In this document: piece by piece, positions 4,171-63,040 of the stretch
How the letters are laid out: each line of letters begins with the position of its first letter
Numbering within the stretch: the first letter of the stretch is position 1
NCBI GenBank assembly: GCA_963724765.1
Contig: CAVRVY010000004.1
Coordinates: 800,001-864,000 of the forward strand
Source: an uncultured delta proteobacterium
Lineage (GTDB): Bacteria > Desulfobacterota > Binatia > Binatales > Binataceae
Direction: 5' to 3'
DNA: 64,000 nt
Notes under the pieces: model-generated
The model's input: only the letters and a program-made list of their open reading frames with translations
Database searches by the model: none
What the model was told of the DNA's origin: nothing
Made by a program: the position numbers and the translations under genes

Positions 4171-4953
4171 TCAGGATTTCGTGCCGCCATCGTCGGGCTT
4201 GCTCAAAGCGCGGCGCAAGTTCAAAAAAGGCTCGAACAGATCCATCGGAATAGGGAACACCGTGGTCGAATTGTTCTCGGACGCGATCTCCTTGAGCGTC
4301 TGCAGGTAGCGGAGCTGCAGCGTCACCGGGCTCTTGTTCATAATCTCGGCGGCCTCGGCGAGGCGTTGCGCCGCCTGGAACTCGCCCTCCGCCGCGATGA
4401 CCTTGGCGCGCCGCTCGCGCTCGGCTTCGGCCTGCGCCGCGATCGCGCGCTGCATGTCCTGCGGCAGATCGATATTCTTGAGCTCGACCAGCGTGACCTT
4501 GACGCCCCAGGGCTCGGTCTGCGCGTCGACGATCTCCTGGATGCGCGCGTTGAGCTTGTCCCGCTGGGCCAGCAACTCGTCGAGTTCGGTCTGTCCGCCG
4601 ACCGAACGCAACGTGGTCTGCGCAAGCTGGGTGGTGGCAAAGAGATAGTTGGCGACCTCGGTCACGGCGCGGGAGGGGTCGAGCACACGGAAGTAGAGCA
4701 CCGCGCTCACTTTTATGGACACGTTGTCGCGGGTGATCACGTCCTGGGGCGCGATGTCGAGCGTCACGACGCGCAGATCGATCCGCACCGAGCGCTCGAG
4801 GATCGGAATGACGAAAATCATCCCCGGTCCGCGAAAGGGGGTGAGCCGGCCGAGGCGAAAAACCACTGCGCGCTCGTACTCGTTGAGCACCTTGAGTCCG
4901 CTCAACCCGATCACCACGACGATCACGATGATTACTCCGATTGCCGGTGCCAT
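4171..4953 (-). CDS. SPFH/slipin (stomatin-like) protein
   Basis: N-terminal [43 protein letters not shown]. Confidence 0.95.
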
Positions 4954-4976
4954 AGGCCTCCCCCCGCTTTTTTCAT

Positions 4977-5000
4977 TGTTTCACTGTTTCACTGTTTCAC
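4977..5000. repeat. 8-bp tandem repeat (TGTTTCAC)x3
   Basis: tgtttcac tgtttcac tgtttcac in the nfeD-SPFH spacer. Confidence 0.85.
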
Positions 5001-5046
5001 GGGCGCCGCCGCCCGCCGTTGTGCATCGGCTTGCATAAAAGCCGCG

Positions 5047-6492
5047 TTACGATTCGCCGCGCACCTCGATCTCCAGGCCGCGCACCGCGATCACGCGCGC
5101 CTTCGCGCCAACGCCCAGCGCCTGGTTGCTCGCGGCGCGCCAATGTTCGCCGTGCACGAACACGCGTCCCGGCGCACCCGGCGCGATCGCCTCGCGCACC
5201 TCGCCGACTTCGCCGACCATGCCTTCGCGGCCGGTGGTGGGACGCCGATGCCGCTCGCGTAAAACGACCCAGCCAAGGCCCAGGATAATCGCACTCATCG
5301 CGATCGCTGCACCAGCGATCATACCGCGGTTAACCTCGAGGTTGGTTTGCGAGCTGTCGACGAGAAAGAGCGAGCCGATCACAAACGCGATCACTCCGCC
5401 AATGCCGAGCACGCCATAGCTGCTAACGAAGACTTCGGAGATCAGCATCCCGATCCCGAGCATCAGAAGCAGGAAGCCGGTCAGATTGATCGGCAAAATC
5501 TCGAACGATCCCAGCGCCAGCAGCAGGCAAATCGCGCCGGCCACGCCCGGCAGGATGAAGCCTGGATGTCCGAACTCGAAATAGATCCCGACGATCCCCG
5601 CCAGCATCAGCAGGTACACGATGTTCGGGTCGGCCAGCACGTTGAGCAGCGCTTGGCCCAGCGTCATCCGCACGCGGCGAATCGTGGCGCCGGCAAGCTC
5701 CAGCCTGATCGTGCGCCCGCCCACCTTGACCTCGCGCCCCGACGCCTGCACGAGCAGGCTTCGCAGGTCGGGCGCGACGATGTCGATCACGTGGCGCTTG
5801 AGCGCCTCGGCTTCGCTGATGGCGGCGCTTTCGCGCACCGCCTGCTCGACCCATTGCTGATTGCGGCCGCGCTCGCGTGCGATGCTGCCCGCGAACGAGG
5901 CGGTGTAGTTCTCAATCTTCTTGCCGACCACGCCTTTGATCTCGCTGCCACCCTCGCCCACCGGATGAGCCGCGCCGATCGTGGTCCCGGGCGCCATCGC
6001 AGCCACCGCCGCCGCCTCGGTGATGAAGGTCCCCGCTGAAGCGGCCGCGGCGCCCGAGGGCGATACGTATACGATCGTCGGAAGCGGGGCGTTGAGCAGG
6101 TCCTTGACGATGCGCTGCGCGGAGCCAAGCAGGCCGCCGGGCGTGTCGAGTTCGATCACCAGGGCGCCGGCGTGATGCGAGTTGGCGTAGCCGATTCCGT
6201 CTTCGATAAACGCGGCGACTGCCGGATTGATCGAGCCATCGATCTTCAGCAGGCAGACCCATGGCACTGCGGCGGCGCTCGCCGTGGCGGAAGCCGCCGC
6301 GGGCGTGGCGGCCGCGCCAACGAGCGACCCGGCGCTCGCCTGGTTCGCGGCGCCGACGTGCTCGGCGGCGGCGCTGGCGAGGCCGCCGAGCGCGATCGTG
6401 CACAGGATCGCGAACACAGACAAGATCGCGAACGCGGACAGGATCGCGAACCCGCGCGCCGCGAGCGCGCCGATGGCGCCGCGCTGCCTCAC
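5047..6492 (-). CDS. nfeD: NfeD long form (ClpP-like serine protease domain, TM domain, OB fold)
   Basis: LDTPGG, AASAG, MAPGTTIGAAHPV, TM helices, C-terminal GRVFVHGEHWRA; adjacent to SPFH gene. Confidence 0.93.
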   Translation of the reverse strand: MRQRGAIGALAARGFAILSAFAILSVFAILCTIALGGLASAAAEHVGAANQASAGSLVGAAATPAAASATASAAAVPWVCLLKIDGSINPAVAAFIEDGIGYANSHHAGALVIELDTPGGLLGSAQRIVKDLLNAPLPTIVYVSPSGAAAASAGTFITEAAAVAAMAPGTTIGAAHPVGEGGSEIKGVVGKKIENYTASFAGSIARERGRNQQWVEQAVRESAAISEAEALKRHVIDIVAPDLRSLLVQASGREVKVGGRTIRLELAGATIRRVRMTLGQALLNVLADPNIVYLLMLAGIVGIYFEFGHPGFILPGVAGAICLLLALGSFEILPINLTGFLLLMLGIGMLISEVFVSSYGVLGIGGVIAFVIGSLFLVDSSQTNLEVNRGMIAGAAIAMSAIILGLGWVVLRERHRRPTTGREGMVGEVGEVREAIAPGAPGRVFVHGEHWRAASNQALGVGAKARVIAVRGLEIEVRGES

Positions 6493-6496
6493 TTTT

Positions 6497-7339
6497 TCAT
6501 CGCGCGCCGCCGCGCGCGGGTATCTCCAGCCCGAGCAGCTTCATCACTTCCTGTATATCCTGCCATACCCACCGCTTTTCACCCGGACTGCGCAACAGGT
6601 ACGCCGGGTGAAACGTCGGCATCAGCTTGACCCCGCGCACCTCGTGCCAGTTGCCACGCAGCCGGCTGATCGGCGTCTTGACCTTGAGCAGCGCCTGCAC
6701 CGCAAAGGTGCCGAGCGCGACGATCGCGCGTGGACCCACGAGGTCGATCTGGCGCATCAGGAATGGCTCGCAGGCGGCGACTTCGTCGGGCTCGGGGTTG
6801 CGATTGTCAGGCGGGCGGCACTTGATGACGTTGCAGATGTAAACGTCGGCGCGGCGAAGCCCCATCCCGCGCTCGATGATGTCGGTCAACAACTGTCCGG
6901 CGCGGCCCACGAAGGGCTCGCCGCGCGCGTCCTCGTCGGCGCCGGGCGCTTCGCCAACGAACATCAGGTCGGAGTGCGGGTTGCCGACGCCAAACACCAG
7001 ATGGGTGCGCAATGGTGCAAGCTTGCAGCGCTGGCAATCGCCAATGAAGGCGCTCAGTTCCTCCAGCGTCGCAGTCTTCTCGAGACCCGGATAGCGCGAG
7101 AGCAATTCGACCGACGCTGGAGCCGGGCGCGGCGGCGATGCAGCGGCGGTGGCGCGAGACGACGCGCCGCCCGGCGCGAGTGCCGAGGCTGCGTCCGCGG
7201 ACGCTTTGGGAGCGGCCGCCCGCGCGAGCGTCGCCGCCGGCAATCCCTCCAATCCTTCCTCGGCGAGTTGCTCCAGGTAATCGCGAACCGAGTCGAGCAC
7301 CAGGCGGCGCTGCTCTGGCGCGGTCAGGTCGCGGCTCAT
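6497..7339 (-). CDS. udg: Uracil-DNA glycosylase family 4 (4Fe-4S)
   Basis: CQRCKL, GEAPGADED, PFVGRAG, NVIKCRPP, TFHPAYLLR; start ATG 7339. Confidence 0.95.
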   Translation of the reverse strand: MSRDLTAPEQRRLVLDSVRDYLEQLAEEGLEGLPAATLARAAAPKASADAASALAPGGASSRATAAASPPRPAPASVELLSRYPGLEKTATLEELSAFIGDCQRCKLAPLRTHLVFGVGNPHSDLMFVGEAPGADEDARGEPFVGRAGQLLTDIIERGMGLRRADVYICNVIKCRPPDNRNPEPDEVAACEPFLMRQIDLVGPRAIVALGTFAVQALLKVKTPISRLRGNWHEVRGVKLMPTFHPAYLLRSPGEKRWVWQDIQEVMKLLGLEIPARGGAR

Positions 7340-20501: not shown

Positions 20502-21200
20502 ATGGCTATGTACAACAGACAGGCTGCTGCGAGATGGGCGCTCTGGATAGCAGTGGGCGTGATGTCCCTGCTTGCGGGATGTTACGTCGGAATGTGGAGC
20601 TCGAGCTCGCATTGGGACACGGCCGACGCCGCCCTGGGCGAGGAACACGACGTCAACTTTCCCGTACACGATACTTATCTGTTGACCCAGGACGCGCTGC
20701 GCGGCGACGGTATCCTCTACGAGGTCGGTCCCGACAATTCCCTGATAACGCTCTGGCGCGATGCCGACACCAAGGTCGGGGTCATGCAGAGCATGGTCGG
20801 GATGCAGGCGCGCTATCGCTACGAGATCCAGGTCACGCCCGAAGGCAGCCAGAAGAGTAAGGTCGTGGTCAACGTCCATACCGAGGGCATCCCCGACAAC
20901 CAGATCGCCGATTACAAGGCGAGCAAGCGCTTCGCGCTGTTCGGCGAAATCGACGAGTTGGCGGCGAAGTACCCTCCGCCCTCCAACACTCCCGCCTCCG
21001 GCGGGGTCAACTTCACCTTGCTGCCCAACGAGGACCTCAAGGGTCTCGCCAAGCGCGTGACCGGCAGCGAGGACAACTGGAGGCAGATCGCTAAGGACAA
21101 CAGCCTCAACTCACCCACCGACGTCACCCCGTTCCAGAGTATCTGGGTCGCCAGCAACCTGCTCAAACGGGCCCCGAATAGCCCCAGCTCTACCGAATAG
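20502..21200 (+). CDS. Lipoprotein with C-terminal LysM-like domain
   Basis: Lipobox LLAGC; C-terminal FTLLPNEDLKGLAKRVTG..NWRQIAKDNSL...VTPFQSIWV fits LysM spacing. Confidence 0.65.
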   Translation: MAMYNRQAAARWALWIAVGVMSLLAGCYVGMWSSSSHWDTADAALGEEHDVNFPVHDTYLLTQDALRGDGILYEVGPDNSLITLWRDADTKVGVMQSMVGMQARYRYEIQVTPEGSQKSKVVVNVHTEGIPDNQIADYKASKRFALFGEIDELAAKYPPPSNTPASGGVNFTLLPNEDLKGLAKRVTGSEDNWRQIAKDNSLNSPTDVTPFQSIWVASNLLKRAPNSPSSTE

Positions 21201-50984: not shown

Positions 50985-51812
50985 CTAGTTTACCGCCAGG
51001 AGGAATTTCGTGATCACCGCCGCGCTGTACTCCGGCACTTCCCAGAAGAAGAGGTGACCCGCGCCGGGTATCTTGTGTATATGCGCGCCCGCAATACGTT
51101 CCTTGAGGATGTCGGAGTTGGCGTCCGGAACGAGCAGATCGGACGTGCCGGTGATGACCAGCGTCGGCGCCTTTATCAGGGACAGCCGATCGAAGGTGTC
51201 AAAACTCCCGATCGCGCCCCCTTGCAATTGATAGGTGTGAAACGGCGTCATCGGGTAATTCATCACTTCAGCCACCCGCTCTTTGAGTACCGCTTGGCCC
51301 CTGGCTGACGCGAGGAATGGCTTGGCACAGCAGGCGGCAAGCAGGCGCTCGACTTGTGGCGCAAGCGGCTCATCCGGGTTGGCCTGCAGCGCGGCGAGCG
51401 CTTCAGGGTCGCCTGCGATGCCGTGGCTGATGCTGCACAGCGTGCAACCCAGCACCAGTGCGCGCAGGCGCGCGGAATGATTGAGCGCGAACTCTTGCGC
51501 GATCATCCCGCCCATCGAGATGCCCATCACATGCGCGCGGTCGATTTTGGCATGGTCAAGCACGCTGGCCACGTCGGCGGCCATGTCGGCCAGCGAGAAC
51601 GGCTTTTCCGGCTTGTCGCTCTCGCCGGTGCCGCGGTTGTCGATCACGACAGTTTTGAAGTGCGCCTCGAGCAGCTTAAGGAACGGCTCGCCCCATCCGC
51701 GGCCCGACCCGCCGTAGCCGAAGATGAGCGCGAGCGGCTCGCCCTCGCCGCGGAGCTCGTAATGAATCCTGGTGCCGTCCCGACTCTGAGCAAAAAATGT
51801 TCTTGCGGCCAC
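50985..51812 (-). CDS. Alpha/beta hydrolase (enol-lactonase/depolymerase-like)
   Basis: DNRGTGESDKP, GISMGGMIAQ, GTSDLLVP, GAGHLF. Confidence 0.9.
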   Translation of the reverse strand: MAARTFFAQSRDGTRIHYELRGEGEPLALIFGYGGSGRGWGEPFLKLLEAHFKTVVIDNRGTGESDKPEKPFSLADMAADVASVLDHAKIDRAHVMGISMGGMIAQEFALNHSARLRALVLGCTLCSISHGIAGDPEALAALQANPDEPLAPQVERLLAACCAKPFLASARGQAVLKERVAEVMNYPMTPFHTYQLQGGAIGSFDTFDRLSLIKAPTLVITGTSDLLVPDANSDILKERIAGAHIHKIPGAGHLFFWEVPEYSAAVITKFLLAVN

Positions 51813-51875: not shown

Positions 51876-52712
51876 TCATTCCGGGTCTTGTGCATTTTCA
51901 TCGCTATCTGTTTGCTTGTGCTGCGCCGCGGTCGAACTTTCGCAGATGGTCAGCCAGTCGGTGCGCACCTTGTCCCATTGCTGAATCAACACGCCGTGCG
52001 CCTCGAATAGCGCGCGGATACGCTGCGGACTCCAGCCGGCGATCTGTTCGAGGATCGGCACCAGCACGCTCAAGGCGTCGTCGCTGATAATCGTGCGCTT
52101 GGCGATCTGCGTGATGTACTTGGCCTCCGAGGCCGCGATCGTGAAGCCGCCGCGATGGTTCACCTCGAGCATGACGTGGATGTCCGAGCTGCCGTCGCCC
52201 ACATAAATAACGCGGTCACTCGGGACGCCCAGCGCCAGGCGCAACTCATCGATCGCCGCCACCTTGCCATAGCCCGCGGCCACCCGCACGATCGACTCGA
52301 TCTCGCCCGACTCCGCAGCATAGCCGAGCCTGGTGCCGACAACGTGATCCGGCGGCACGATTCCCTCCAGGGCCGACCGCACGACCTCCTCGGGCGCCGC
52401 AGAAATGACGTAGAAGTCGAAACGATGACCCTCGATGCCGTTTTCCAGCAGCTCGGTCAGCAGCGGGATGTTGCGTTTGAGACGCACGCGGCGGCCGACT
52501 TCGGCCAGGTCCTGCCTGCGCACGCGCCGGAACTCCGGGTCGTGGCGCAGAAGGTAGGCCAGTTCGCCGCCCTGCTGCACCAGGTTGAGCCGCGAGAGGC
52601 CGATCACCTTTTCTTCGAAGCCGGTGATGCGGAGCAGCTCGCTCAGAGCGATACCGGAATCGTTGAAGCTGAGCGTCTGATCGAAATCGCTTGCGAGCAG
52701 ATAGTGTTTCAT
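51876..52712 (-). CDS. HAD-IB family hydrolase
   Basis: DFDQT motif I, ISAA motif [12 protein letters not shown] motif IV. Confidence 0.88.
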
Positions 52713-52909
52713 CTGATGCAACGGCAAATCATGATAGCGCGAACCATTTGGCTATTCGCGACACAAGTCAGGAGCAGCAATAAGTATTAATGGAATGTTC
52801 ATGGAGTATTACGCGCCGCCGCCGCCGGACTCGCTCACAAGCAGCAATTGTACCATCTATTCTTCGCGCAAACTTGCCGCCACGCTGCCTCAGCGCGAAT
52901 CGCCAATAG

Positions 52910-52946
52910 AAAAAGGCGGCCCGCGCGGTAGACGCGCGAACCGCCT
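52910..52946 (-). terminator. Intrinsic terminator after the PHA cluster
   Basis: Minus strand AGGCGGTTCGCGCG-TCTAC-CGCGCGGGCCGCCT-TTTT. Confidence 0.75.
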
Positions 52947-53007
52947 GCAATACCATCATCAGCGGAGCGAAATTATAGTCCGCCCCCGCTTGGAAGCGAA
53001 CGGCTCC

Positions 53008-53274
53008 TTAGAGCTTCCAGAGCGAACGAGCGGTGCTCACGCTCTGCTCGACCAACTTGCGGCCGATCGTTTGCTGCGCTTCGATCAGGGGGTAGATAGG
53101 AGTTTCCTTGGCCCACTCGGTCGCTTTGACCTGGAAATCCAGCGCCTGGGTCGCGAGCTTCTCGGTAGTGTCGATGTACCACGCCGCCGCCTTTTTGGCG
53201 CCCGCCGGATTAAAGCAGGTTTCCGCGATACGTGAAAATCCCTCGTATGCTCCGCTATGTTCTTTCTCTGACAT
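53008..53274 (-). CDS. Small helical protein, putative phasin
   Basis: 88 aa, GGAGGAG RBS, amphipathic Ala/Gln/Glu/Lys helices, directly downstream of phaC. Confidence 0.6.
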   Translation of the reverse strand: MSEKEHSGAYEGFSRIAETCFNPAGAKKAAAWYIDTTEKLATQALDFQVKATEWAKETPIYPLIEAQQTIGRKLVEQSVSTARSLWKL

Positions 53275-53361
53275 TAGTAATCTCCTCCGTACATTCTTTT
53301 GGGAGCCTTGCTCCGTCGTGTTAGAATTTAACCACGAATTCGCGTTAGGCTCGGTGTGCTT

Positions 53362-53377
53362 TGTCGCGCGCGCGACA
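53362..53377. promoter_or_regulatory. CRP/CooA-type operator
   Basis: TGTCG-CGCGCG-CGACA perfect palindrome about 90 bp upstream of the putative phasin ATG. Confidence 0.6.
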
Positions 53378-53426
53378 TTTTCGAACGTTTGCGCGTCGTC
53401 ATGATTCTTTCCCTTACGTTTCTTGT

Positions 53427-54509
53427 TCAATTCGATCGTTCTCCCAACCATGCGCCGATTTTTGGCCACAGTTGCTTGTGAGCCGCGCCGCTCACCATCG
53501 CTCCCACGTGTCCGGTCGGGAAGGTCAGATTGCGCCGGTCGCAGCTGCTCACGCGATCGACCAGCCCCAGGCTCGAGCGTGGATGCACTACGTCGTCGTA
53601 GTCGGCAACCACGTTGAGCAACGGACACCTGATTTGTTCAATTTCGACCTTGCGCCCGCCGACCTCGAACCCGCCGCGCGCAAGCAGATTACGCTTGAAG
53701 ATATCCCCGGACATCTCCCGGAAAATCCGTCCCGCCATCGCCACGTCGCTGCTCATCCAGCGCTCGAACAGATCAAACTGTTCGGCATAGCCGTCGCGCT
53801 CGGCGTTGCGATACAGACCAACGTACTTGTCGATCGCGTGATGCACCGGGGCCATCGCGGTGAAGAACGACTGCACCATCCATGCTGGGCAGTTGCCATG
53901 CACCCGCGTGACCATCTCCATCGCCTCCTCGCTCATCCGGTCGAGGATGCTATAGATGGGCAAATCGCGCACACCCATGTCGAACGGCGTGGTCGCGGTC
54001 ACTAGGTTGCGCACGTTCTCGGGATGGAGCGCGGTGTAGATGAGGCTCAGCAGCGCGCCGAAGCAGTAACCCAGAACCGTGACCTGCGCGGTGCGCGTGA
54101 TCGCGCGCACGAAACGCACAGCCTTGTCGAGGTCGCCGTTGACGTAGGCGTCGAAGCCGCGCCAGGTGTCGGTAGGATTGGGCGGCAGCCAGTCGGTCAG
54201 GTAAACGTCAAAGCCCGAGCGCGTCAGGAATTCGATCACGCTGCGGCCCTTCTGGATGTCGAGCACGAACGGACGCTTGATCAACGCGTAGACCAGCACG
54301 ATAGGCGTGCGATGGGCATTTGTGCCCGTGGCCGCGTAATGACGCAGCCGCACCTTGCCGCTCTCGAAGACCACGCGGTAGGGCGTGACCGGCTGAGGGT
54401 CGTTGACGGTCGCATGTGCGCCCTTTTTGAAACCGTCGAGCGTGCGCATCGCGCCGTCGAGCCAGTAGCCGGCAATCGCGTTCATTGGCGTGTTAGTTGG
54501 CTGGAGCAT
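53427..54509 (-). CDS. phaC: Class III PHA synthase subunit PhaC
   Basis: PIVLVYALIKRPFVLD, DVYLTDW, lipase box GYCFG, catalytic D (YDDVV) and H (TGHVG); ATG 54509. Confidence 0.9.
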   Translation of the reverse strand: MLQPTNTPMNAIAGYWLDGAMRTLDGFKKGAHATVNDPQPVTPYRVVFESGKVRLRHYAATGTNAHRTPIVLVYALIKRPFVLDIQKGRSVIEFLTRSGFDVYLTDWLPPNPTDTWRGFDAYVNGDLDKAVRFVRAITRTAQVTVLGYCFGALLSLIYTALHPENVRNLVTATTPFDMGVRDLPIYSILDRMSEEAMEMVTRVHGNCPAWMVQSFFTAMAPVHHAIDKYVGLYRNAERDGYAEQFDLFERWMSSDVAMAGRIFREMSGDIFKRNLLARGGFEVGGRKVEIEQIRCPLLNVVADYDDVVHPRSSLGLVDRVSSCDRRNLTFPTGHVGAMVSGAAHKQLWPKIGAWLGERSN

Positions 54510-55032
54510 CTTCGCCTTGCTTGCGCTCGAAGGGCGCCACCGCCGGAGTCCATCCGCCATTCCACATCGCGGTCAACGGGTCACCCACCTGGCGCTCGCC
54601 CGCAGCCGTCTCGATCTCCGCCGCGCGCGCTTCCTCGGCTTCCAGGCGGGCCCCCGCCAGGTCGTCGCGAAGCGCCCCCAGTTCGGCGCGCAACTCAGTC
54701 AACTCGGCTGCCGAGGGCAGCCCCACCACCGGCCATAGCGCGGCGAAAAACGCCCCCGTCATTGCCGAACCCAGGCGCTGCCACCTGAGCGACGCCTCCA
54801 TCGAGCGGCCCGCCGAAGCACCGACCTCCGGACTTGCATAAAGACCGTTGGCGGATTCGTTGAGCAACTGCACCCAGGCGTCGTAGGCCTTCCATCCCGC
54901 CTGCTGCAGGTCCTTTTCGAGATCATGCTCCCCGCCGCGTTCGCGGTCCTGGGCGAACATGCTTCTGGCGGCCACGAATGGCATTTCGACCATCGCCTCG
55001 CCGAGTTTGGCCCATTGCTCGAAGAATTTCAT
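54493..55032 (-). CDS. phaE: Short PhaE/PhaR-like PHA synthase subunit
   Basis: YDAWV...LYASPE...GR..EASL...GLPSAAELTELRAELGALR resembles the PhaE C-terminal box; overlaps phaC start; AAAGGGG RBS. Confidence 0.7.
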   Translation of the reverse strand: MKFFEQWAKLGEAMVEMPFVAARSMFAQDRERGGEHDLEKDLQQAGWKAYDAWVQLLNESANGLYASPEVGASAGRSMEASLRWQRLGSAMTGAFFAALWPVVGLPSAAELTELRAELGALRDDLAGARLEAEEARAAEIETAAGERQVGDPLTAMWNGGWTPAVAPFERKQGEDAPAN

Positions 55033-55096
55033 ATGTACCCCTTTATGCTATCCGCGTGGTCGAAGACTGGCCCAAAACGATACGCTATGCTGTTTG

Positions 55097-55112
55097 AGCA
55101 GCATTTATGCCA
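55097..55112 (-). promoter_or_regulatory. Sigma54 promoter of phaEC
   Basis: TGGCAT-AAATG-CTGCT (GG-N10-GC), 65 bp upstream of the phaE ATG. Confidence 0.6.
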
Positions 55113-55354
55113 ATCGTTTCAACTATTCCTTGTCGCTCTTGTTGCCGGATGCCTCGCGCCGGGGATGCCCATTGTGCGCGCCTCTGCCGCCGTTTTAGGC
55201 ACTCCTCCATTTTCACGACCAATCCGTACCGTGATTCGGTTGCTGCCTGATGAAGGCCGGATTGTCGCTGAATGAATCACCCTGCGCTTTTCCTGCATTC
55301 GGTGATTGAAGACTATCTGATATTCACGGTATAGCAAAATTAGCTTTCTTAACA

Positions 55355-55374
55355 TTTGTCGCAGGTGCGACAAA
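55355..55374. promoter_or_regulatory. CRP/CooA-type operator
   Basis: TTTGTCGCA-GG-TGCGACAAA perfect 9-2-9 palindrome (core TGTCG-N6-CGACA). Confidence 0.7.
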
Positions 55375-55452
55375 ACCGAGCATGCGCGGCCCTTAACCCT
55401 CGTGTTTGGTCGCTTTGGTGACATCACCGCCGTCTGTGCTAACCAATGAAAT

Positions 55453-56190
55453 GTGACAGCCGAAGTCTCGCAACAGAAGCTGCTCAGCCGGCTACGGACG
55501 CTAGCGTGGATGTCGGAGGCGCAGCTCGCCAAGCTCTCCACCGCGACCATCACGCGCCGCGTGCGGCGCCACGAAACAATTTTTTTCGAGGGCGAGGACG
55601 CCAAGTCCGTTTACGTGCTGCTCTCGGGCGTCGCCAAGCTGACCTTTCTCAACGCGAGCGAACGTATCCTGGTCTCGCTGGTCGGTCCCGGCGAGATCTT
55701 CGGCGTCTCCTCGCTGCTGACGGTGGCCAAGCGGCCCTTTCGATGCGACGCGTTCAGCGACTGCCTGGTCGGCGTCACCAGTCCGGAGGCCTTCGTCGAC
55801 GCCTCGCTCGGCGTGCGCCTGGAAGATTTGAGCCGGGTGCTCGATGTCACTGTGGGACGCTGGTGGGCGATGCTCTTGCGGTATACGAATTTTCTCGGAC
55901 TCGCGTTGCGCGAGCGGCTGGCGGGCGCGCTGCTGGAGTTGGGGACCAAGTTTGGTGCCGAGGACGCGCGCGGGCGGATTTTAACCCTGAAGCTTACGCA
56001 TAGCGATCTGGCCGAGTTGGTCGGCGCGTCGCGCCAGCGGATCACCGAGCAGTTGAGCGAATTCGAGCGCACCGGCGTGATCATCCGCGACGGGCGGCGT
56101 CTCATAATCGTCACCAGCGAATTGCTCGCCCTGGTGCAGGGTGACAAGCCGGGCCCCGGCGGCGACGAGGGCACCGGCGCCGCGCGCTAA
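55453..56190 (+). CDS. CRP/FNR family transcriptional regulator
   Basis: IFFEGE, YVLLSGVAKL, PGEIFG, ERLAGALLEL, LTHSDLAELVGASRQRIT. Confidence 0.93.
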   Translation: MTAEVSQQKLLSRLRTLAWMSEAQLAKLSTATITRRVRRHETIFFEGEDAKSVYVLLSGVAKLTFLNASERILVSLVGPGEIFGVSSLLTVAKRPFRCDAFSDCLVGVTSPEAFVDASLGVRLEDLSRVLDVTVGRWWAMLLRYTNFLGLALRERLAGALLELGTKFGAEDARGRILTLKLTHSDLAELVGASRQRITEQLSEFERTGVIIRDGRRLIIVTSELLALVQGDKPGPGGDEGTGAAR

Positions 56191-56224: not shown

Positions 56225-57259
56225 TCAATTCTTCCTGAAATACGGCATCACTTCGCGGGCGAAGAGCCGCATCGATTTCTTGGTCAATTCCGAATCCACG
56301 TTGGGAAAGTCCATCATGCATTGCAGATAGTCCATCCCCACTTCGCGCTGGTATTTTTCGATCTCGCGGATGCAATGGCCGGGGTTGCCCAGGATGAAGC
56401 GCTCGCGGAAGGTCTCCAGGCTGACTTCGCGTGCGCCGGATACAGCCTGTCCGCGGTCGTCCTTTAACTCGCGCACCTGCGCCCAGCGTCCGTACATTCC
56501 GGCCTGTATATAGATCATTCCGGGCCCGCCTTCCCGCTCTGCCTGCTTCATGGTCTCGGCGCAATAGACCTCGCGGATGACTGGCGTACAGGTTTCCTTG
56601 CGGCCGAATTCAGCCAGGTAACGCCGATAGCTTGCGTAATGATTTTTAAGATCGCTCAGATGATGGCGTGGCGAGGAGCACAGCGCGTCCGCCCATTTTG
56701 CCGCGCGGCGAAAGCCACCTTCGGTCGAAGCTCCGATCCAGATTGGCGGATGAGGCTTCTGCGCGGGCTTGGGCATCACGGAGATTTCCGGAAACTGATA
56801 GTACTTGCCGCTGTACGCGAACGAATCGGTGGTCCACGACTTGATCAGGATCTCCAGTTGCTCTTCCATCCGCGCTTCCCGGCCCTTGCGCGGTTCTCCC
56901 AGACCTTCGAACTCGATCGGACGGTAACCGGCGGCCACGCCCACGATGACGCGTCCATTGGCGATATTGTCGAGCACCGCCACGTCCTCGGCGATGCGCA
57001 CCGGGCGATGGAGCGGCAGCAGCAGCATCGCGGTGCCGATCTTGATTATGCTCGTCCGCGCCGCCATCGCGGCCGCCGTCAGGAGCACCGAGGGGCACTC
57101 GCCGTCTTCCTTGAAGTGATGTTCGATGAGCCAGGCGGAATCGAAGCCCAGTTCCTCGGCAAGCACTACCTGCTCGAGCATCTCTCGATATACTTCGGTG
57201 TGCGGTTTTCCCGAGCCCTGGGCCGCCTGCAGATTGAAGGGGCCGATACCGAATTTCAT
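56225..57259 (-). CDS. LLM-class flavin-dependent oxidoreductase
   Basis: AEELGFDSAWLIEHH, PVRIAEDVAVLD, PKPAQKPHPPIW. Confidence 0.92.
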   Translation of the reverse strand: MKFGIGPFNLQAAQGSGKPHTEVYREMLEQVVLAEELGFDSAWLIEHHFKEDGECPSVLLTAAAMAARTSIIKIGTAMLLLPLHRPVRIAEDVAVLDNIANGRVIVGVAAGYRPIEFEGLGEPRKGREARMEEQLEILIKSWTTDSFAYSGKYYQFPEISVMPKPAQKPHPPIWIGASTEGGFRRAAKWADALCSSPRHHLSDLKNHYASYRRYLAEFGRKETCTPVIREVYCAETMKQAEREGGPGMIYIQAGMYGRWAQVRELKDDRGQAVSGAREVSLETFRERFILGNPGHCIREIEKYQREVGMDYLQCMMDFPNVDSELTKKSMRLFAREVMPYFRKN

Positions 57260-57500
57260 GATTTGGCTCTCCATTAAAATTATTTCCGCGCTGAATTCTC
57301 TGTCAAAATTCCGTGAAGATGTAAATGTCTGAATCGTCGAAAGCGGCGCGGGAACGGCTTGAAATCGCCGCGCGATTGCTGAAGAGTCTTACCTTCGTCC
57401 GAGTTTTATTTTCGTTCGGATTTGTTGTCGTAAAATCTGATTTCCAAATAACGATTTCCAAGCCACGTAACGCGGCGCCCCCGCGAGGAGCACTGGCGAG

Positions 57501-58343
57501 ATGCCCGAAGACAAGTTTCAGATTGCCGGCGGACTCAAATTGCACTACCTGGACTTCGGTGGTGAGGGAAAGCCGGCGTTGGTCTGTATCCACGGGCTGA
57601 CCGGCAACGCGCACAACTTTGACGCGCTGGCCCCGCATCTGACGGCGCGCTACCGCGTGCTCGCGCTCGACGTCCGCGGCCGCGGCGACAGCGGGTGGGG
57701 TGCGCCGCTAGACTACAATCCGCAGGTCTACGTCAGCGACCTCAAGGAATTCCTCGACGGGCTCGGAATCAAACGCGTGAGCCTGGTGGGAACCTCGATG
57801 GGCGGTGTGATCTCGATGATGTTCGCCGGCGGCTATCCGGAAACCGTCGAACACCTGGTCCTAAACGACATCGGCCCTGACATCGATCCGGCCGGCCTGA
57901 TGCGAATCATGGCCTATCTTGGCCAGGCGCCCGATCGCTTCAAGAATCTGGCCGAGGTCGGAGCCTACTACCGCGAAATCTACCCGCCCGCGGCCACGCT
58001 CTCGGACGAGGTGCTCACCGAGTGGGTGCGATGGTCGGTGAAGACGGCCGAGGACGGCAGGCTTACGTGGAAGATGGACCCGGCGGTTCGCCGCCCGCCG
58101 CGCGGAGGCTCGGCGGCGCGGCCGATCGATCTGTGGCTGCCCTACAATCGCGTGATGGCGCCCATCTTGATCGTGCGCGGGGCGGAGAGCGACATCCTGT
58201 CGCGCGAAACGGCGGCCCGGATGGTCAAGGTGCAACGCGGCGTGCGCCTGGTCGAGGTTCCCGGCGTCGGCCACGCGCCCTCGCTGGTCGAGCCGGAAGC
58301 GCTCGAGGAGATTACCGGCTTCCTCGGCGTCGCCAAGGCGTAG
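57501..58343 (+). CDS. Alpha/beta hydrolase
   Basis: IHGLTGN, DVRGRGDS, GTSMGG, LNDIGP, RGAESD, VGHAP. Confidence 0.92.
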   Translation: MPEDKFQIAGGLKLHYLDFGGEGKPALVCIHGLTGNAHNFDALAPHLTARYRVLALDVRGRGDSGWGAPLDYNPQVYVSDLKEFLDGLGIKRVSLVGTSMGGVISMMFAGGYPETVEHLVLNDIGPDIDPAGLMRIMAYLGQAPDRFKNLAEVGAYYREIYPPAATLSDEVLTEWVRWSVKTAEDGRLTWKMDPAVRRPPRGGSAARPIDLWLPYNRVMAPILIVRGAESDILSRETAARMVKVQRGVRLVEVPGVGHAPSLVEPEALEEITGFLGVAKA

Positions 58344-58359: not shown

Positions 58360-61300
58360 TCAACTTCCGCGGCCGGCGACCGACACCTTGACCGTGGCCG
58401 GGGTGCCCGGCGCGGTGTCCGTCATCACCAGCGTCGCGGTCGCCCTGCCCGTCACCGTCGGCGCGAACTGCACGCCGATCGTCAGGCTCTGATGCGGCTG
58501 CAGCGTGAACGCTGCGGCACCCTGGGTGAGAGTGAACGGGCTGCCGATAGCGAACGCGCCTACACTGCCGTTCAGCACGCCGCGCGCCGCGTTGGTGACG
58601 GTGAAGGTCTTGGTGAGCGTGGTGCTTCTGGCGACCGGGCCGAAACCGAGCGTCGGCAGCACCGCGGGCGGTATCGGCGCTGCCAGGTTGACCACCAGAT
58701 GCCCGCCCACTCCTATGCCGCCGATCGGAAGGTTCACGCTCGGATGCGCCGGATCGTCGCTGATGATCGCCAAAGTGGCGCTAACATGACCGATGACCGT
58801 GGGCGTAAATTGTACGGTAACAAATTGCTTCTGGCCGGGCGCGAGATTAAACGTCCCGCCGCCCGCGCTCACGTTAAAGGGCGCGGCAAGTGCGCCAACC
58901 GACCCGGTGAGCATACCAATACCGCTGTTCCTGACCGCAAATCTCATCGACCCCGGCGTGACGCCGATTCCGACCCGGCCGAACCCCATACTGACCGGGA
59001 GCGCAAGCGTGCCCGCAACTCCGTGCCCGACAAGCGCGACCGTGAAGACCGGATGATGCAGGTCGCTGCTGGTGATGTTCAGGCTGCCGGTCGCCTTACC
59101 GATCAACGTGGGTGTGAACTGGATCGTCACCGCAGTTTTGTGCAAAGGCGCAATCGCGAATGGTCCGAATCCCGAAAGCACCGCGCAGGGCCGCGCCATC
59201 GCGCCCAGCGACACGGTCAGCGTCTTGTACGGGCTGAGATTATGGATGTTCACCACCCTGATCCGGGGCGCAACACCGATTCCCACCGAACCGAATAGCA
59301 TCGGCGTGGCGACCGAGAGCGTACCGCCCGGCACCGGTGTCGGAGTCGGTGTCGGTGTTGGCGCTGGTGTCACAACGGGGGTCGGCGTCACGATCGGAGT
59401 CGGCGCCGGCGACGGCGTTGCCGTGGGTGACGCGATGGGCGTCGGCGTTGGTGTCGGCACCGGTGACGGCGTTGCCGTGGATGACGCGGTCGGCGTCGGA
59501 GTCGGCGCAGCCGACGGCGTCGGTGACGCGATGGGCGTGGGAGTTGGGGTCACAATGGGCGTTGGCGTCGCAACGGGCGTCTGCGTCGGAGTCGGCGCCG
59601 GTGATGGGGTTCCCGTGGGGGACGCGGTCGGCGTGGGCGTGGCGATCGCTTGCGGATGGTCGTACTCGAGCATGCGGCTGTCGGCCGAATCGGCGACATA
59701 GAGATTGCCGGCGCTGTCCAGCGCGACTCCGTTGGGCGCGCACAGTGTGTCGGCGCTGGCCGTGACGACGCACTGCGTGTCAGTGTCGGTGGCACGGCCG
59801 AATACCAGGTCGGCGCTCGCATCGCCCGCGCCACTCTCGCCACTGGCCGCGTTGAGCGGAGTGTTGTACTCGAGGACGCGATTGTCGCCGGTATCGGTGA
59901 CGTAGAGATCGCCGGCGCTGTCGGCCGCGACGCTTGCGGGCTGGCAGAGGCTGTCGGGCCCCACACCGCCAATGTCGCCGTCGGCAATTCCGCGGTTGCA
60001 TCCGGTGGCGGTAAAACTACCGGCCTGGCCGAAAACGAAATCGGCGTTGGTGTCGCCGGCATCGTACTCGAACACCCGGCTGTTGCCATAGTCGGCGACG
60101 TAGAGATTGCCCGTCTGGTCGAGCGCCACGCCGGTTGGATTGCACAGGCTGTCTGGACCGGCGCCGTTGAGGTCGCCACCCGCGGCGCCGTCATTGCACG
60201 CGACCGTGGCGAAGCTCAAGTTTTGGCCGAAGACAAGATCCGCGGTGGTATCACCGGCGGAACCGGATATGCCGGGGGTGCCGCCGCCGGCCGCCAGCGG
60301 ATCGTCGTATTCGAGTACGCGGCTGTTATCGGTGTCGGCAACGAAGACGTCGCCCTCGGGGTCTACCGCGACCCCGCTGGGACGGTTGAGCCCGTCGACG
60401 CCGCCGCCGCTGACGACGGTGGTGAAGCTGCCGCCCTGGCCAAACACCTTCTGCGCGCTTTGTCCTGCGGTCATGCCGCTGCTGAAGGGCTGGGCGAACT
60501 CGAGCACGCGGTTGTCGTCGGCGTCGGCGACGTAGAGATTGCCTGCGCTATCGACGGCGACTCCACTGGGCTCACACAAACTGTCGGGGCCGACGCCATT
60601 TACGTCGCCGCCCGCCAGTCCGGCGTCGCACACGAAGCTGAAAAAGTCAGGTTGGCCGATAACCAGCGCGGCCGCCGCGCCGTCGGCAAACGCGCTTGCG
60701 CTGGTCCATCCGAGCACCCGGCTGTTGGCGGTGTCCGCGACATAGAGATGCCCGTCCGCGTCGATCGCGGGGTTCGCGGCCAGCACGTTGGTCGACGCCG
60801 GATTAGCCAGCTCGAGCGCGGCGGGGCCGCCAAAGTTATCCATGTTGTGCTCAAGGTCGGTCTGGCCGAGTTCGCGGTCGGCGATCGTGTCGCCGGCGCC
60901 ACTCTCGCCGCTGGCTGCGTTGAGCGGCGTATTGTAGACCAGCAGCCGGCCGTTGTCCGAGTCCGTGGCGTAGAGGTTGCCCGGGGCGTCAAGCGCGACG
61001 GAGGCGGGCGAACAGAGCGCGCCGGCATCGACCACGATTCCGAAGCCGGCCAACAGCCCGGTGTCGGAACCGTTGCACAGCGCGGTCGTGAAGCTCCCGG
61101 CCTGGCCAAACACCAGGTCGGCCACCGCGTCACCGGCCCCACTCTCGCCGCTGCCGCTGTTTAGCGGCGTGTTGAACTCCAGCAGGCGGCTGTTGCCGGC
61201 GTCGGCGACATAGAGATTGCCGGCGCCGTCGGTCACGAGTCCCTGCGGATCGGAAAGACTGTCGGGCCCCAGGCCAGCCACATCGCCGCCCCCGGCGCCG

Positions 61301-62364
61301 TCGTTCGCCCCGCCGGTGGTAAAGCTGCCGTTCTGGCCGAAGACATTGTCGGCGATGGTGTCGCCGGCGCCGGCCAAGCCGCTCGACGGATTGAGCGGCG
61401 TGTTGTATTCGAGGATGCGATTGTTGTTGGTGTCGGCCACGTAGAGGTTGCCGCTCGCGTCGGTGATGACGCCGGTTGGCCCGCACAGGCTGTCGGGCCC
61501 TGTGCCGCTCACATCGCCGCCCGCCGTGCCGTCGGCGCAGAGCTTGGTCGTGAAGCTGTTGCTCTGGCCGAAAACCATGTCGGCGAGCGCGTCGCCGGCG
61601 CCGCTTTCGCCGATGCCGGCGTTAAGCGGCGTGCTGTATTCGAGCACACGGCTGGCGCCGCTGTCGGCGATGTAGAGATTGCCGACCGCGTCAACCGCAA
61701 CCGCTCGCGGATCGCACAGGCTGTCGACACCGACGCCGGCGACGTCGGCGCCCGCGATGCCGTCGTCGCATCCGCTGCCGACAAAGCTGCCATGTTGTCC
61801 AAAAACCATCGCGGCCGCCTCGCCTTGGGTAACTCCGCTCAGAAATGGGCTGCTGAACTCCAACACGCGATTGTCGATGCTGTCGGCGACGTAGAGATTG
61901 CCGGCGCTGTCGACCGCGACACCCTCGGGTCCGCACAGACTGTCGGCGCCCATCCCGCCCACGTCACCACCCGCCGCGCCGTCGTCGCATCGGTAGCTGT
62001 AAAAATCTGGCTGGCCGATCACGATACTGGCCGGAGCTCCGTTGTTGAACATGCTCGCACTGGTCCATCCCAGCACCCGGTTGTTGATCGAATCCCCGAC
62101 GTACAGATGACCAGCCGCATCGACCGCCACGCCGGTCGGGCCGGAAAGCGCGTCCGCGCCGCCAAAGTCGAACATGCTGTGGGTGAAATCAACTTCGCCC
62201 AACTCGCGATCGGCGGTAGTATCGCCGGCGGTTCCAGGTGTGCCCGCGACCGCCACGCGCACGAACGACAACGCCGCAGCGACTGCCAGCGCGGCGAACA
62301 CTGCTCCAACGGAAAGATAGTTACCGCCGCCGGCAAAGCGGCGGCGCCTTGGATGGATACCCAT
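58360..62364 (-). CDS. Large secreted surface protein: 12 NHL-like repeats, Pro/Thr linker, three Ig-like (choice-of-anchor D/ASH-like) domains
   Basis: Signal peptide; 12 copies of G(N/H/D)LYVAD..N.RVL; (TP)n linker; three FG.V...N....F.PT..G...SDD/SSD modules. Confidence 0.85.
59335..59645 (-). repeat. Coding Pro/Thr low-complexity linker
   Basis: About 100 codons of TPTPTA/SP repeats. Confidence 0.85.
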
Positions 62365-63040
62365 TTTCGAGACAACTCCTGTCCGCCGAAAACTTGAAAC
62401 CGGGGAGTCGCAAGAAACGATCCCAGGCGGTCTCGTTATGACTCACCAGTGCCGCTCAGTTACGCTAACTGCGCACATGCATTTGGCATTTGGCTTAAAT
62501 AGTCAGTGCGTCTTACGCGACGCGCGCGCGTCACATGGGGCACGATCTTTTTTTCGCACCGATGACACACTACGAAACAATAAGTGCTCGAACGCGAGAC
62601 ACCGTCTTACTGAGGAATGTTGCAGCGATCCCGTCCTAAATCTCCGGCACTCAACTCCCAGCGTTGGAATAGTCTTTCCCTTCTGGGCAACTGGAATCTC
62701 GCAGACCTATGTGGCGCGCGCATTCCCTGGCAGGAATGAGTCGGATCGCCAAGTGCCCGAATCAGACTTGCCGATACCGCCTCGGCGCACCAGGACGGCC
62801 AGCCACACTAAGACTAGTACAGATAGAGTAACTACCACACCTTAATGCCTTAAAGTCTTAAATTGACACGTCAGTTGTTCGCGTTAATGTTTGATCTATG
62901 GTTAATGCCTTATCTATGTTCAAATCAATTATTCATGTATACTCAGTGTCACTACGTCGAATATCAATTGACATTATACCGGCTTGTGAGGACCTTCCAG
63001 GTTCGGCGACGTAGGTTCGTGCAAGCGAGATCGCTTTTCA

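Follow-up and report, generated by a model that had tools for sequence, protein, structure and literature searches.

We identified a putative dedicated regulator of polyhydroxyalkanoate (PHA) storage in a 64,000-nucleotide (nt) stretch of DNA from an uncultured soil bacterium of the Binataceae (contig CAVRVY010000004.1, positions 800,001 to 864,000; hereafter the window, whose own numbering is used for its coordinates). A Crp/Fnr-family gene and conserved boxes at the neighboring PHA genes point to a local switch of granule formation of a kind not described until now: the regulator would act in dependence on an effector, probably as an activator, on phaE-phaC, on the phasin gene and on its own gene through 22-bp boxes, a reading to which we assign a probability of roughly three in four. 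The arrangement appears best explained as a PHA module specific to Binataceae (a family within the candidate phylum Binatota), in which a phaE-like gene, phaC and a phasin gene run leftward in this order from a control region and the Crp-family regulator gene runs rightward from it, followed in most relatives by a gene for an alpha/beta hydrolase. PHA granule formation is a model for bacterial carbon-storage decisions and a target of biotechnology. The core features are listed below, with box scores from a position weight matrix (PWM).

53008-53274, minus strand: phasin-like gene P0002 (88 aa), with a GGAGG Shine-Dalgarno sequence at 53282-53288
53362-53377: phasin box TGTCGCGCGCGCGACA, PWM score 24.5, centre 95.5 nt before the phasin ATG
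53427-54560, minus strand: PhaC, a class III-like PHA synthase (longest open reading frame, ORF)
54493-55032, minus strand: PhaE-like small subunit candidate P0004 (179 aa), its stop overlapping or abutting the phaC start
55357-55372: distal box TGTCGCAGGTGCGACA, PWM score 29.0, centre 88.5 nt before the regulator start codon
55408-55423: proximal degenerate box GGTCGCTTTGGTGACA, PWM score 15.1, centre 37.5 nt before the regulator start codon
55453-56190, plus strand: Crp/Fnr-family regulator P0001 (245 aa), divergent from the phaE-like gene

The divergent starts of the phaE-like gene (55032) and the regulator gene (55453) are separated by 420 bp, and a gap of 152 bp separates the phaC stop (53427) from the 88-aa gene, which starts at 53274. 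An initial annotation, made from the sequence alone, had reported two perfect TGTCG-N6-CGACA palindromes, the phasin box and the distal box; both are present, and they are the only matches in the 64,000 bases (shuffled windows contain 0.15 on average, and 4 of 100 shuffles reach two). The looser pattern TGTCR-N6-YGACA returns the same two sites and nothing else in the window (shuffle mean 0.18; 0 of 100 shuffles reach two). When one mismatch is allowed there is one extra site, at 20754, giving 3 sites versus 3.16 expected by chance. The single box placed in the control region by the annotation is thus real as the distal box, but it is one half of a tandem pair, whose degenerate member at 55408-55423 had been missed.

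To compare orthologous loci, we scanned 185,579 species-representative genomes with two motifs of the regulator alignment and obtained 64 loci, 58 of which (regulators 60-94% identical; loci up to 13 kb, 654,451 bp in total) form the locus set used here. All 58 come from metagenome-assembled genomes (MAGs); current names, where there are any, are Candidatus Binataceae or Binatus, and older records go under delta-proteobacterium, proteobacterium or bacterium. The exact pattern TGTCR-N6-YGACA occurs 67 times in these loci, 44 times in the gap between regulator and phaE (22,954 bp) and 22 times in the gap between phaC and phasin (8,817 bp); the remaining site is at the end of L019, directly after phaC, where the phasin gene is cut off by the contig end. 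The two gaps make up 4.9% of the locus DNA. A comparison of motif frequency in coding and promoter DNA had been suggested with the initial annotation, and none of the 67 sites is in coding DNA elsewhere in the 58 loci. Conservation in orthologous loci had likewise been named beforehand as a test: at a PWM score of at least 12, none of the 56 loci lacks a site between phaE and the regulator gene, and a phasin site is present in 38 of 51. When the regulators are clustered at 80% identity, the control-region box is present in all 10 clusters and the phasin box in 5.

The same motif emerges from a pattern-free enumeration of all 1,024 five-base half-sites as palindromes with spacers of 2-10, in which the three top palindromes are registers of one motif, identical with the box. 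GTCGC-N4-GCGAC is found in 36 regulator-phaE and 22 phaC-phasin gaps (4 times in the remaining 524 kb), TGTCG-N6-CGACA in 24 and 14 (once in the remainder) and TTGTC-N8-GACAA in 24 and 8 (0 in the remainder). The next unrelated palindrome, GGAGC-N3-GCTCC, is a leader hairpin present in the phaC-phasin gap of 10 loci. In a symmetrised count from 65 distinct sites (130 arms), positions that the search pattern did not fix are conserved as well, with C/G at positions 6 and 11 in 124 of 130 arms and T/A flanks in 88 of 130, while the central four bases and the outer flanks carry at most 0.1 bit; this conservation at unselected positions indicates a CRP-sized 22-bp operator, wwT-TGTCGC-N4-GCGACA-Aww.

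Outside the two gaps, the loci contain seven sites with a PWM score of at least 12. One of these is in the truncated phasin gap of L019, and L025 and L026 share another (a TTTCGC variant) before an unannotated 290-aa ORF without a Pfam family. Weak matrix matches elsewhere in the window are at 62552 (score 11.4), 6805 (9.0) and 63597 (8.1). The first of them, TTTCGCACCGATGACA at 62552-62567, lies between the gene for a 1,334-aa NHL-repeat/immunoglobulin (Ig)-domain protein (58360-62364, minus strand) and Tad pilus genes (63041 onward), and we did not count it as a further regulon member.

The palindromes could instead be structural elements (RNA or DNA hairpins, or a terminator of phaC) or have arisen by chance in G+C-rich DNA, since the arms could form a 6-bp stem with a 4-nt loop and a few of the window shuffles do reach two exact matches. 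We find this hardly credible. Of 115 arm-position pairs that deviate from the consensus, 100 are changed in one arm only and just 8 keep the pairing, which argues for sequence-specific recognition by a protein and not for a hairpin; on the phaC strand the box has no T-run after it, and the terminator scan makes no call at this place; and Rfam has no match within 52700-55500. We rejected the hairpin or terminator reading on these three grounds, and a chance origin on the basis of the shuffles, the pattern-free enumeration and the location of the boxes, which is exclusive and position-fixed in the 58 loci.

The gene order crp-phaE-phaC-phasin, the synteny of which had been put forward for checking, is kept as well. 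The tblastn counts among the 58 loci are 56 for the PhaE-like gene, 53 for PhaC and 51 for the small gene, and order and orientation are always as in the window. Six of the seven loci that lack the small gene (L019, L021, L027, L034, L035 and L053) are short or cut at a contig end, and L036 is the sole full-length locus (12.6 kb) in which tblastn found no pha gene. Of the 58 loci, 55 have an alpha/beta hydrolase gene 3' of the regulator gene and in the same orientation (e.g. L014, 6766-7584), and in 43 of these 55 it is no more than 150 nt from the regulator stop. It is probably part of the module and co-transcribed with the regulator gene in most relatives, which would bring the conserved module to five genes. 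In the window and five close relatives (L002, L005, L009, L011 and L013), a gene for a luciferase-like (LLM) oxidoreductase has been inserted before the hydrolase gene, breaking the presumed regulator-hydrolase operon:

56225-57274, minus strand: LLM (luciferase-like, F420/FMN-type) oxidoreductase gene, between the regulator and alpha/beta hydrolase genes
57501-58343, plus strand: alpha/beta hydrolase, found 3' of the regulator gene on the same strand in relatives

The assignment of the small gene as a phasin, already put forward in the initial annotation, is accepted here through its orthologs. The 88-aa protein itself has no Pfam or NCBIfam match, and none to Phasin_2 even at E values up to 10; 24 of 29 aligned orthologs (47-97% identical) match Phasin_2 (PF09361; best E 1.1e-6), which makes the gene a probable phasin by transitive homology. 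A language-model look-up places the protein nearest to an Atlas cluster from Binatota, 13% of whose members carry Phasin_2. PhaC scores 289.4 bits against TIGR01836 (E 3.5e-86; below the cut-off of 365.3), and its C166 (GYCFG box), D322/D323 and H351 are invariant in 27 sequences. Its longest ORF overlaps the phaE-like gene by 68 nt, and since alignments with distant orthologs begin at residue 24-26, the true start is probably M18 (54509) or M26 (54485).

The 179-aa protein is a candidate for a short, divergent PhaE-like subunit. It has no family match of its own; 7 of 29 orthologs match PHA_synth_III_E (PF09712; best E 1.4e-4), and 9 of 29 weakly match Phasin (PF05597). PhaE is about twice as long as this protein. 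Co-folding with PhaC, for which we supplied our own alignments, lends weak support (median ipSAE 0.55 versus 0.01 for the best control; runs agree in at least 65% of contacts; partner predicted local distance difference test score, pLDDT, at least 56). In calibration with 80 solved complexes and 110 mismatched pairs, the mark of 0.55 was reached by 58 and 2 of them, respectively, and the passes at 0.60 or below comprised only 7 of the 80 solved complexes together with both mismatches. The alpha/beta hydrolase has a sub-threshold match to NF050089 (intracellular short-chain-length PHA depolymerase; 82 bits versus a cut-off of 300) and matches a polyhydroxybutyrate depolymerase chain at 4e-16 in its N-terminal part only.

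The boxes of the control region have a fixed geometry. Nearly all loci contain two of them, with centres 88.5 and 37.5 nt before the regulator start codon (fixed at these positions in about 50 of 56 loci), and they are spaced by 51 bp in 40 of 49 pairs, by 50 in 7 and by 52 in 2. A spacing of 51 bp is close to five helical turns and would put the pair on one face of the helix. In six loci (L027, L030, L035, L037, L042 and L044) the regulator gene is displaced, being 0.4-2.1 kb further off; the box pair stays 290-400 nt upstream of phaE there, and no box with a score of at least 10 was found near the displaced regulator start. Because the pair stays with phaE in these loci, the synthase operon phaE-phaC is probably a target too. 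Candidate promoter elements accompany all three boxes:

53326-53334, minus strand: conserved TGnTTAnnT, extended -10-like, putative phasin promoter
55310-55337, minus strand: candidate sigma-70-type promoter towards phaE (TTGCTA at 55337-55332, a 16-nt spacer, TAGTCT at 55315-55310)
55437-55445, plus strand: conserved TGnTAnnnn (TGCTAACCA), extended -10-like, 6-7 nt before the regulator GTG start

The TGnTTAnnT element starts 27-29 nt after the box in 34 of the 41 loci with a phasin box, the window included, and no -35-like match was found upstream of it. We infer that the phasin box is centred at about -50.5 from the transcription start. Towards phaE, TTG-N19-21-TAnnnT begins 20-21 nt beyond the distal box in 35 of the 49 loci with the pair, which would put the distal box near -62 of this candidate promoter. 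On the regulator side, 40 of 49 loci have TGnTA no more than 25 nt beyond the proximal box, its T being 12-13 nt before the start codon in 33 of these 40. The start of the regulator ORF is fixed by an in-frame stop codon at 55447-55449, and the start codon is GTG without a Shine-Dalgarno sequence. The regulator mRNA would then be leaderless, which would put the two boxes near -36.5 (proximal) and -87.5 (distal). In one clade, represented by L030, the conserved rightward promoter-like element is followed by a gene of the HpaB family (4-hydroxyphenylacetate 3-hydroxylase-like; 4313-5884, plus strand), which separates the box pair from the regulator gene.

The regulator matches PF00027 (cNMP_binding; 2.7e-14, residues 35-116) and PF13545 (HTH_Crp_2; 7.3e-14, residues 154-221), both above the cut-offs, and among its 552 relatives in metagenomic protein sets (E value at most 0.001) the best 120 are all Crp/Fnr by domain. 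It reads ...LVGASRQRITEQL..., and its recognition helix, SRQRITEQL, contains the SRQRIT that the initial annotation had picked out from the translation. Profile alignment (hhalign) to E. coli CRP places R194, Q195 and E199 on R180, E181 and R185 (mature numbering). An alignment of 18 relatives shows conserved GASRQRxTEQL, GEIFGVSSL, RPFRCDAFSDC and TVGRWW, and G-A-S-R-Q-R of the helix is kept in 57 of the 58 regulators. The AlphaFold model has a beta-roll, a long C-helix and a helix-turn-helix, and all its top Foldseek matches are Crp/Fnr, with GlxR, M. tuberculosis CRP and NtcA the best. Against solved structures, the profile gives NtcA at 9e-18, actinobacterial CRP/GlxR at about 3e-17 and CooA at 2e-6 to 2e-5; for the DNA-binding domain alone GlxR/CRP are closest and CooA is 11th. 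NCBIfam scores are far below the cut-offs for the CRP equivalog (33 versus 266 bits) and for NtcA TIGR03697 (49.3 versus 244.95).

One further R-Q protein was seen at L059, in another Binataceae MAG: a 36%-identical paralog (6001-6588) with the helix start GSSRQS and the GEIFGVSSLL motif, and with no pha genes within 6 kb.

Real boxes could nevertheless belong to another Crp/Fnr paralog encoded elsewhere, e.g. a global regulator, while the adjacent regulator recognises something else. The loci examined span at most 13 kb, so the rest of the genomes may hold other paralogs or boxes; the L059 paralog, away from pha genes, is an R-Q protein of this kind; and where the regulator gene is displaced (six loci), the boxes accompany phaE and not that gene. 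This explanation is nonetheless quite improbable in our view, as the regulator gene is no more than 2.2 kb from the boxes in every box-bearing locus, the boxes keep fixed distances from its start codon in most loci, helix and half-site alike hardly vary across 60-94% protein identity, and the motif has only 0-4 matches in 524 kb of flanks.

For the signal, a small anionic metabolite is most likely, judging from the residues of the sensory domain. NtcA contacts 2-oxoglutarate through Gly76, Arg88, cis Arg129 and trans Glu134, according to the part of PMC12937710, a structural survey from 2026, used here. In the regulator, G84, R94 and R136 are invariant and align with NtcA Gly76, Arg88 and Arg129, and the cAMP contacts E72, R82 and S83 of CRP correspond to V85, R94 (kept) and P95, all invariant in the regulator family. 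CRP shares the Gly/Arg/Arg residues, so these indicate an anionic ligand and not 2-oxoglutarate specifically. Canonical cAMP binding is unlikely, as the ribose-binding Glu and Ser are absent (V85, P95). Fnr/FixK-type oxygen sensors have an N-terminal cysteine cluster for an iron-sulfur (Fe-S) centre; the only cysteines of the regulator are C98 and C104, with none in the first 97 residues, and Fe-S sensing of the Fnr type was rejected because this cluster is missing. C98 and C104 (window about 55744-55764), both invariant in the alignment of relatives, are six residues apart in the RPFRCDAFSDC strand beside the ligand cassette, a motif present in 55 of 58 orthologs, and a redox or metal role of the pair is possible. 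With the anion clamp kept and the CRP Glu/Ser, the Fnr cysteines and the CooA deletion (see below) all absent, the residues argue for such a metabolite over cAMP, O2 or CO.

According to the part of PMC12937710 used here, the heme pocket of CooA, whose ligands are His77 and Pro2, requires the absence of the region equal to residues 72-82 of E. coli CRP. That region is present and near-invariant in the regulator (G84...R94), whose N-terminus reads V-T-A-E. We rejected membership in CooA, and with it heme-based CO sensing, since the loop is present (GEIFGVSSLL...KRPF) and CooA chains match only at 2e-6. A gas as ligand, considered in the initial annotation, is unlikely given this loop and a regulator much nearer to NtcA and GlxR than to CooA.

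Taken together, a regulator dimer would bind the 22-bp boxes, as a tandem pair in the divergent control region and at one box ahead of the phasin gene, with the effector held by the Gly/Arg/Arg anion clamp of its sensory domain, the clamp that NtcA uses for 2-oxoglutarate and CRP for the cAMP phosphate. The phasin promoter would be activated by regulator bound near -50.5; such dependence on the bound regulator is suggested by an extended -10-like element at a fixed 27-29 nt with no -35. At phaE the distal box near -62 would occupy a class-I-like position, and the proximal box near -36.5 of the leaderless regulator promoter would allow autoregulation. That the regulator controls its own gene and the phasin gene had been proposed from the window, and synteny, boxes and the R-Q helix predict the same, with all three refutation tests run in silico in favour of it; phaE-phaC as a target and the hydrolase as a fifth member likely enlarge this circuit.

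The same protein and boxes could also serve a repressor with PhaR/PhaQ logic, which would occupy the phasin, phaE and own promoters and leave them on release by an effector or by the granule. In the presumed leaderless promoter the -35 region coincides in part with the proximal box, and the classic phasin regulators are autoregulated repressors in the sections of the review PMC9049629 that we draw on. The phasin box, in contrast, is wholly upstream of a promoter-like element that lacks a -35 and keeps its distance, an activator-type layout in which so remote a site would not occlude polymerase, and the distal box has an activating position relative to the candidate phaE promoter, all promoter positions being predicted. 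We therefore consider repression unlikely, and prefer an effector-dependent activator.

Several points weigh against the preferred explanation. The strict sigma-70 consensus scan missed all candidate promoters (it gave two other weak plus-strand matches, at 53268-53327, that face no gene). E. coli CRP is not known to activate from about -50.5/-51.5, and the proximal box at about -36.5 could repress as well as activate. The control of the phasin gene claimed in the initial annotation would extend only to the 38 loci with a phasin box; 13 of 51 loci, and 5 of the 10 clusters at 80% identity, lack a phasin box that scores at least 12. There is some circularity in the PWM counts, as the matrix was built from the same loci, and the loci share descent, so that their counts are non-independent events. 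Assigning the boxes to the adjacent Crp paralog rests on adjacency and helix conservation, and scans of 12-kb loci and one 64-kb window may understate the size of the regulon and overstate how dedicated the regulator is. The regulator model is of moderate confidence (pLDDT 72.5; predicted template modelling score, pTM, 0.53). Finally, trans Glu134 of NtcA is replaced by Leu141 in the regulator, which leaves 2-oxoglutarate as only one candidate ligand.

Among known systems, CooA (the CO sensor of Rhodospirillum rubrum and Desulfovibrio) resembles the regulator in fold family and in the TGTCG...CGACA core of its box, and the CooA-type core noted in the initial annotation is found in print, with TGTCGGCnnGCCGACA (TGTCGGC-N2-GCCGACA) given as the CooA consensus in the part of PMC545781 consulted. 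Position 6 is G in the CooA box and C here, and the common core is a likeness in what is recognised, not in family membership. None of the 10 neighboring ORFs scanned is a coo or carbon monoxide dehydrogenase (CODH) gene; the neighbors are pha, haloacid dehalogenase (HAD), LLM and hydrolase genes. The recognition helix of CooA also starts with R-Q.

Among solved structures, the best match in sequence is NtcA, a nitrogen regulator of cyanobacteria that senses 2-oxoglutarate, and both proteins have the FGV...R pocket motif. It differs in its helix (R-V-T-V-T versus R-Q-R-I-T in the regulator) and in being a global regulator that is not encoded in a pha locus, whereas the regulator here is locus-encoded. 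NtcA is an activator, its site is a different palindrome, and its signal reports carbon/nitrogen balance, the usual condition for PHA production. The best structural matches are GlxR of Corynebacterium and M. tuberculosis CRP (Foldseek E 6.5e-18 to 4e-16; template modelling score, TM, about 0.6-0.7). These read LVGASRE and the regulator reads LVGASRQ, a change from Glu to Gln at a base-contacting position, and the CRP-type half-site is TGTGA compared to TGTCGC here. CRP Glu181 reads the fourth base pair of the half-site.

As for PHA regulation, the regulators PhaR, PhaQ, PhaD/PhaF, PhbR and haloarchaeal PhaR are alike in having a regulator gene in the pha locus and sites before the phasin gene and their own gene (PMC9049629, in the sections used here). 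They belong to unrelated protein families, and those acting on phasins are mostly polymer-released repressors, whereas the layout here suggests an effector-dependent activator. In those sections, the locus-encoded PHA regulators are of the PhaR, PhaQ, PhaD, PhbR and AbrB-type families, Crp/Fnr proteins enter only as global, indirect inputs (CydR in Azotobacter, Anr in Pseudomonas, Fnr in Herbaspirillum and FixK2 in Bradyrhizobium), and the term 'Crp' has no occurrence (PMC9049629). CydR, Anr, Fnr and FixK2 regulate genome-wide in response to oxygen or redox state and have their genes outside the pha locus; here the regulator is locus-encoded and the motif is found only at the locus in the DNA examined. 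The claim that no such circuit had been described thus stands for a dedicated, locus-encoded Crp-family PHA regulator, which is what is new, and not for the involvement of the Crp/Fnr family, as global regulators of the Fnr type were already known to influence PHA genes. Our full-text literature search found no paper linking Binatia or Binatota to polyhydroxyalkanoates.

A bolder proposal, tentative and rather doubtful as a whole, is that a new class of dedicated PHA regulators has its first member here, a Crp/Fnr activator confined so far to Binatota, which would read an anionic metabolite (a signal of carbon/nitrogen status or a PHA precursor) in its NtcA-like pocket, or redox state through Cys98/Cys104, and would directly switch on synthase, phasin, hydrolase and itself from CooA-like boxes, including activation from about -50.5. 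If the proposed circuit is true, synthase and phasin would be under joint control of a ligand-gated activator of the Crp type with a simple, well-defined operator, a logic new to the regulation of PHA genes and also a portable inducible switch. One protein and three boxes would also be a handle on the physiology of Binataceae, a widespread soil lineage without a cultured member, and a natural test case for the way in which half-site specificity depends on residue two of the Crp recognition helix (Glu, Gln or Val).

Two further features frame the phasin gene, which together with its leader and GGAGG site suggest a monocistronic phasin unit:

52914-52946, minus strand: terminator-like hairpin (14 pairs, then a T-run) directly after the phasin stop
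53302-53314, minus strand: hairpin GGAGC-N3-GCTCC in the putative phasin 5' leader

Other clades have conserved small hairpins in the phasin 5' leader (CGCGGG...CCCGC plus CCCC...GGGG), and these leader hairpins may be stabilising or regulatory. Beyond the phasin gene on its 3' side, both on the minus strand (50985-51812 and 51876-52727), are the genes for another alpha/beta hydrolase, with a sub-threshold likeness to 3-oxoadipate enol-lactonase, and for a HAD-IB phosphatase-like protein. The HAD-IB phosphatase-like gene is kept in the 13 closest loci only, and the second hydrolase has a match at 49-84% identity downstream of the phasin gene in 24 of 58 loci.

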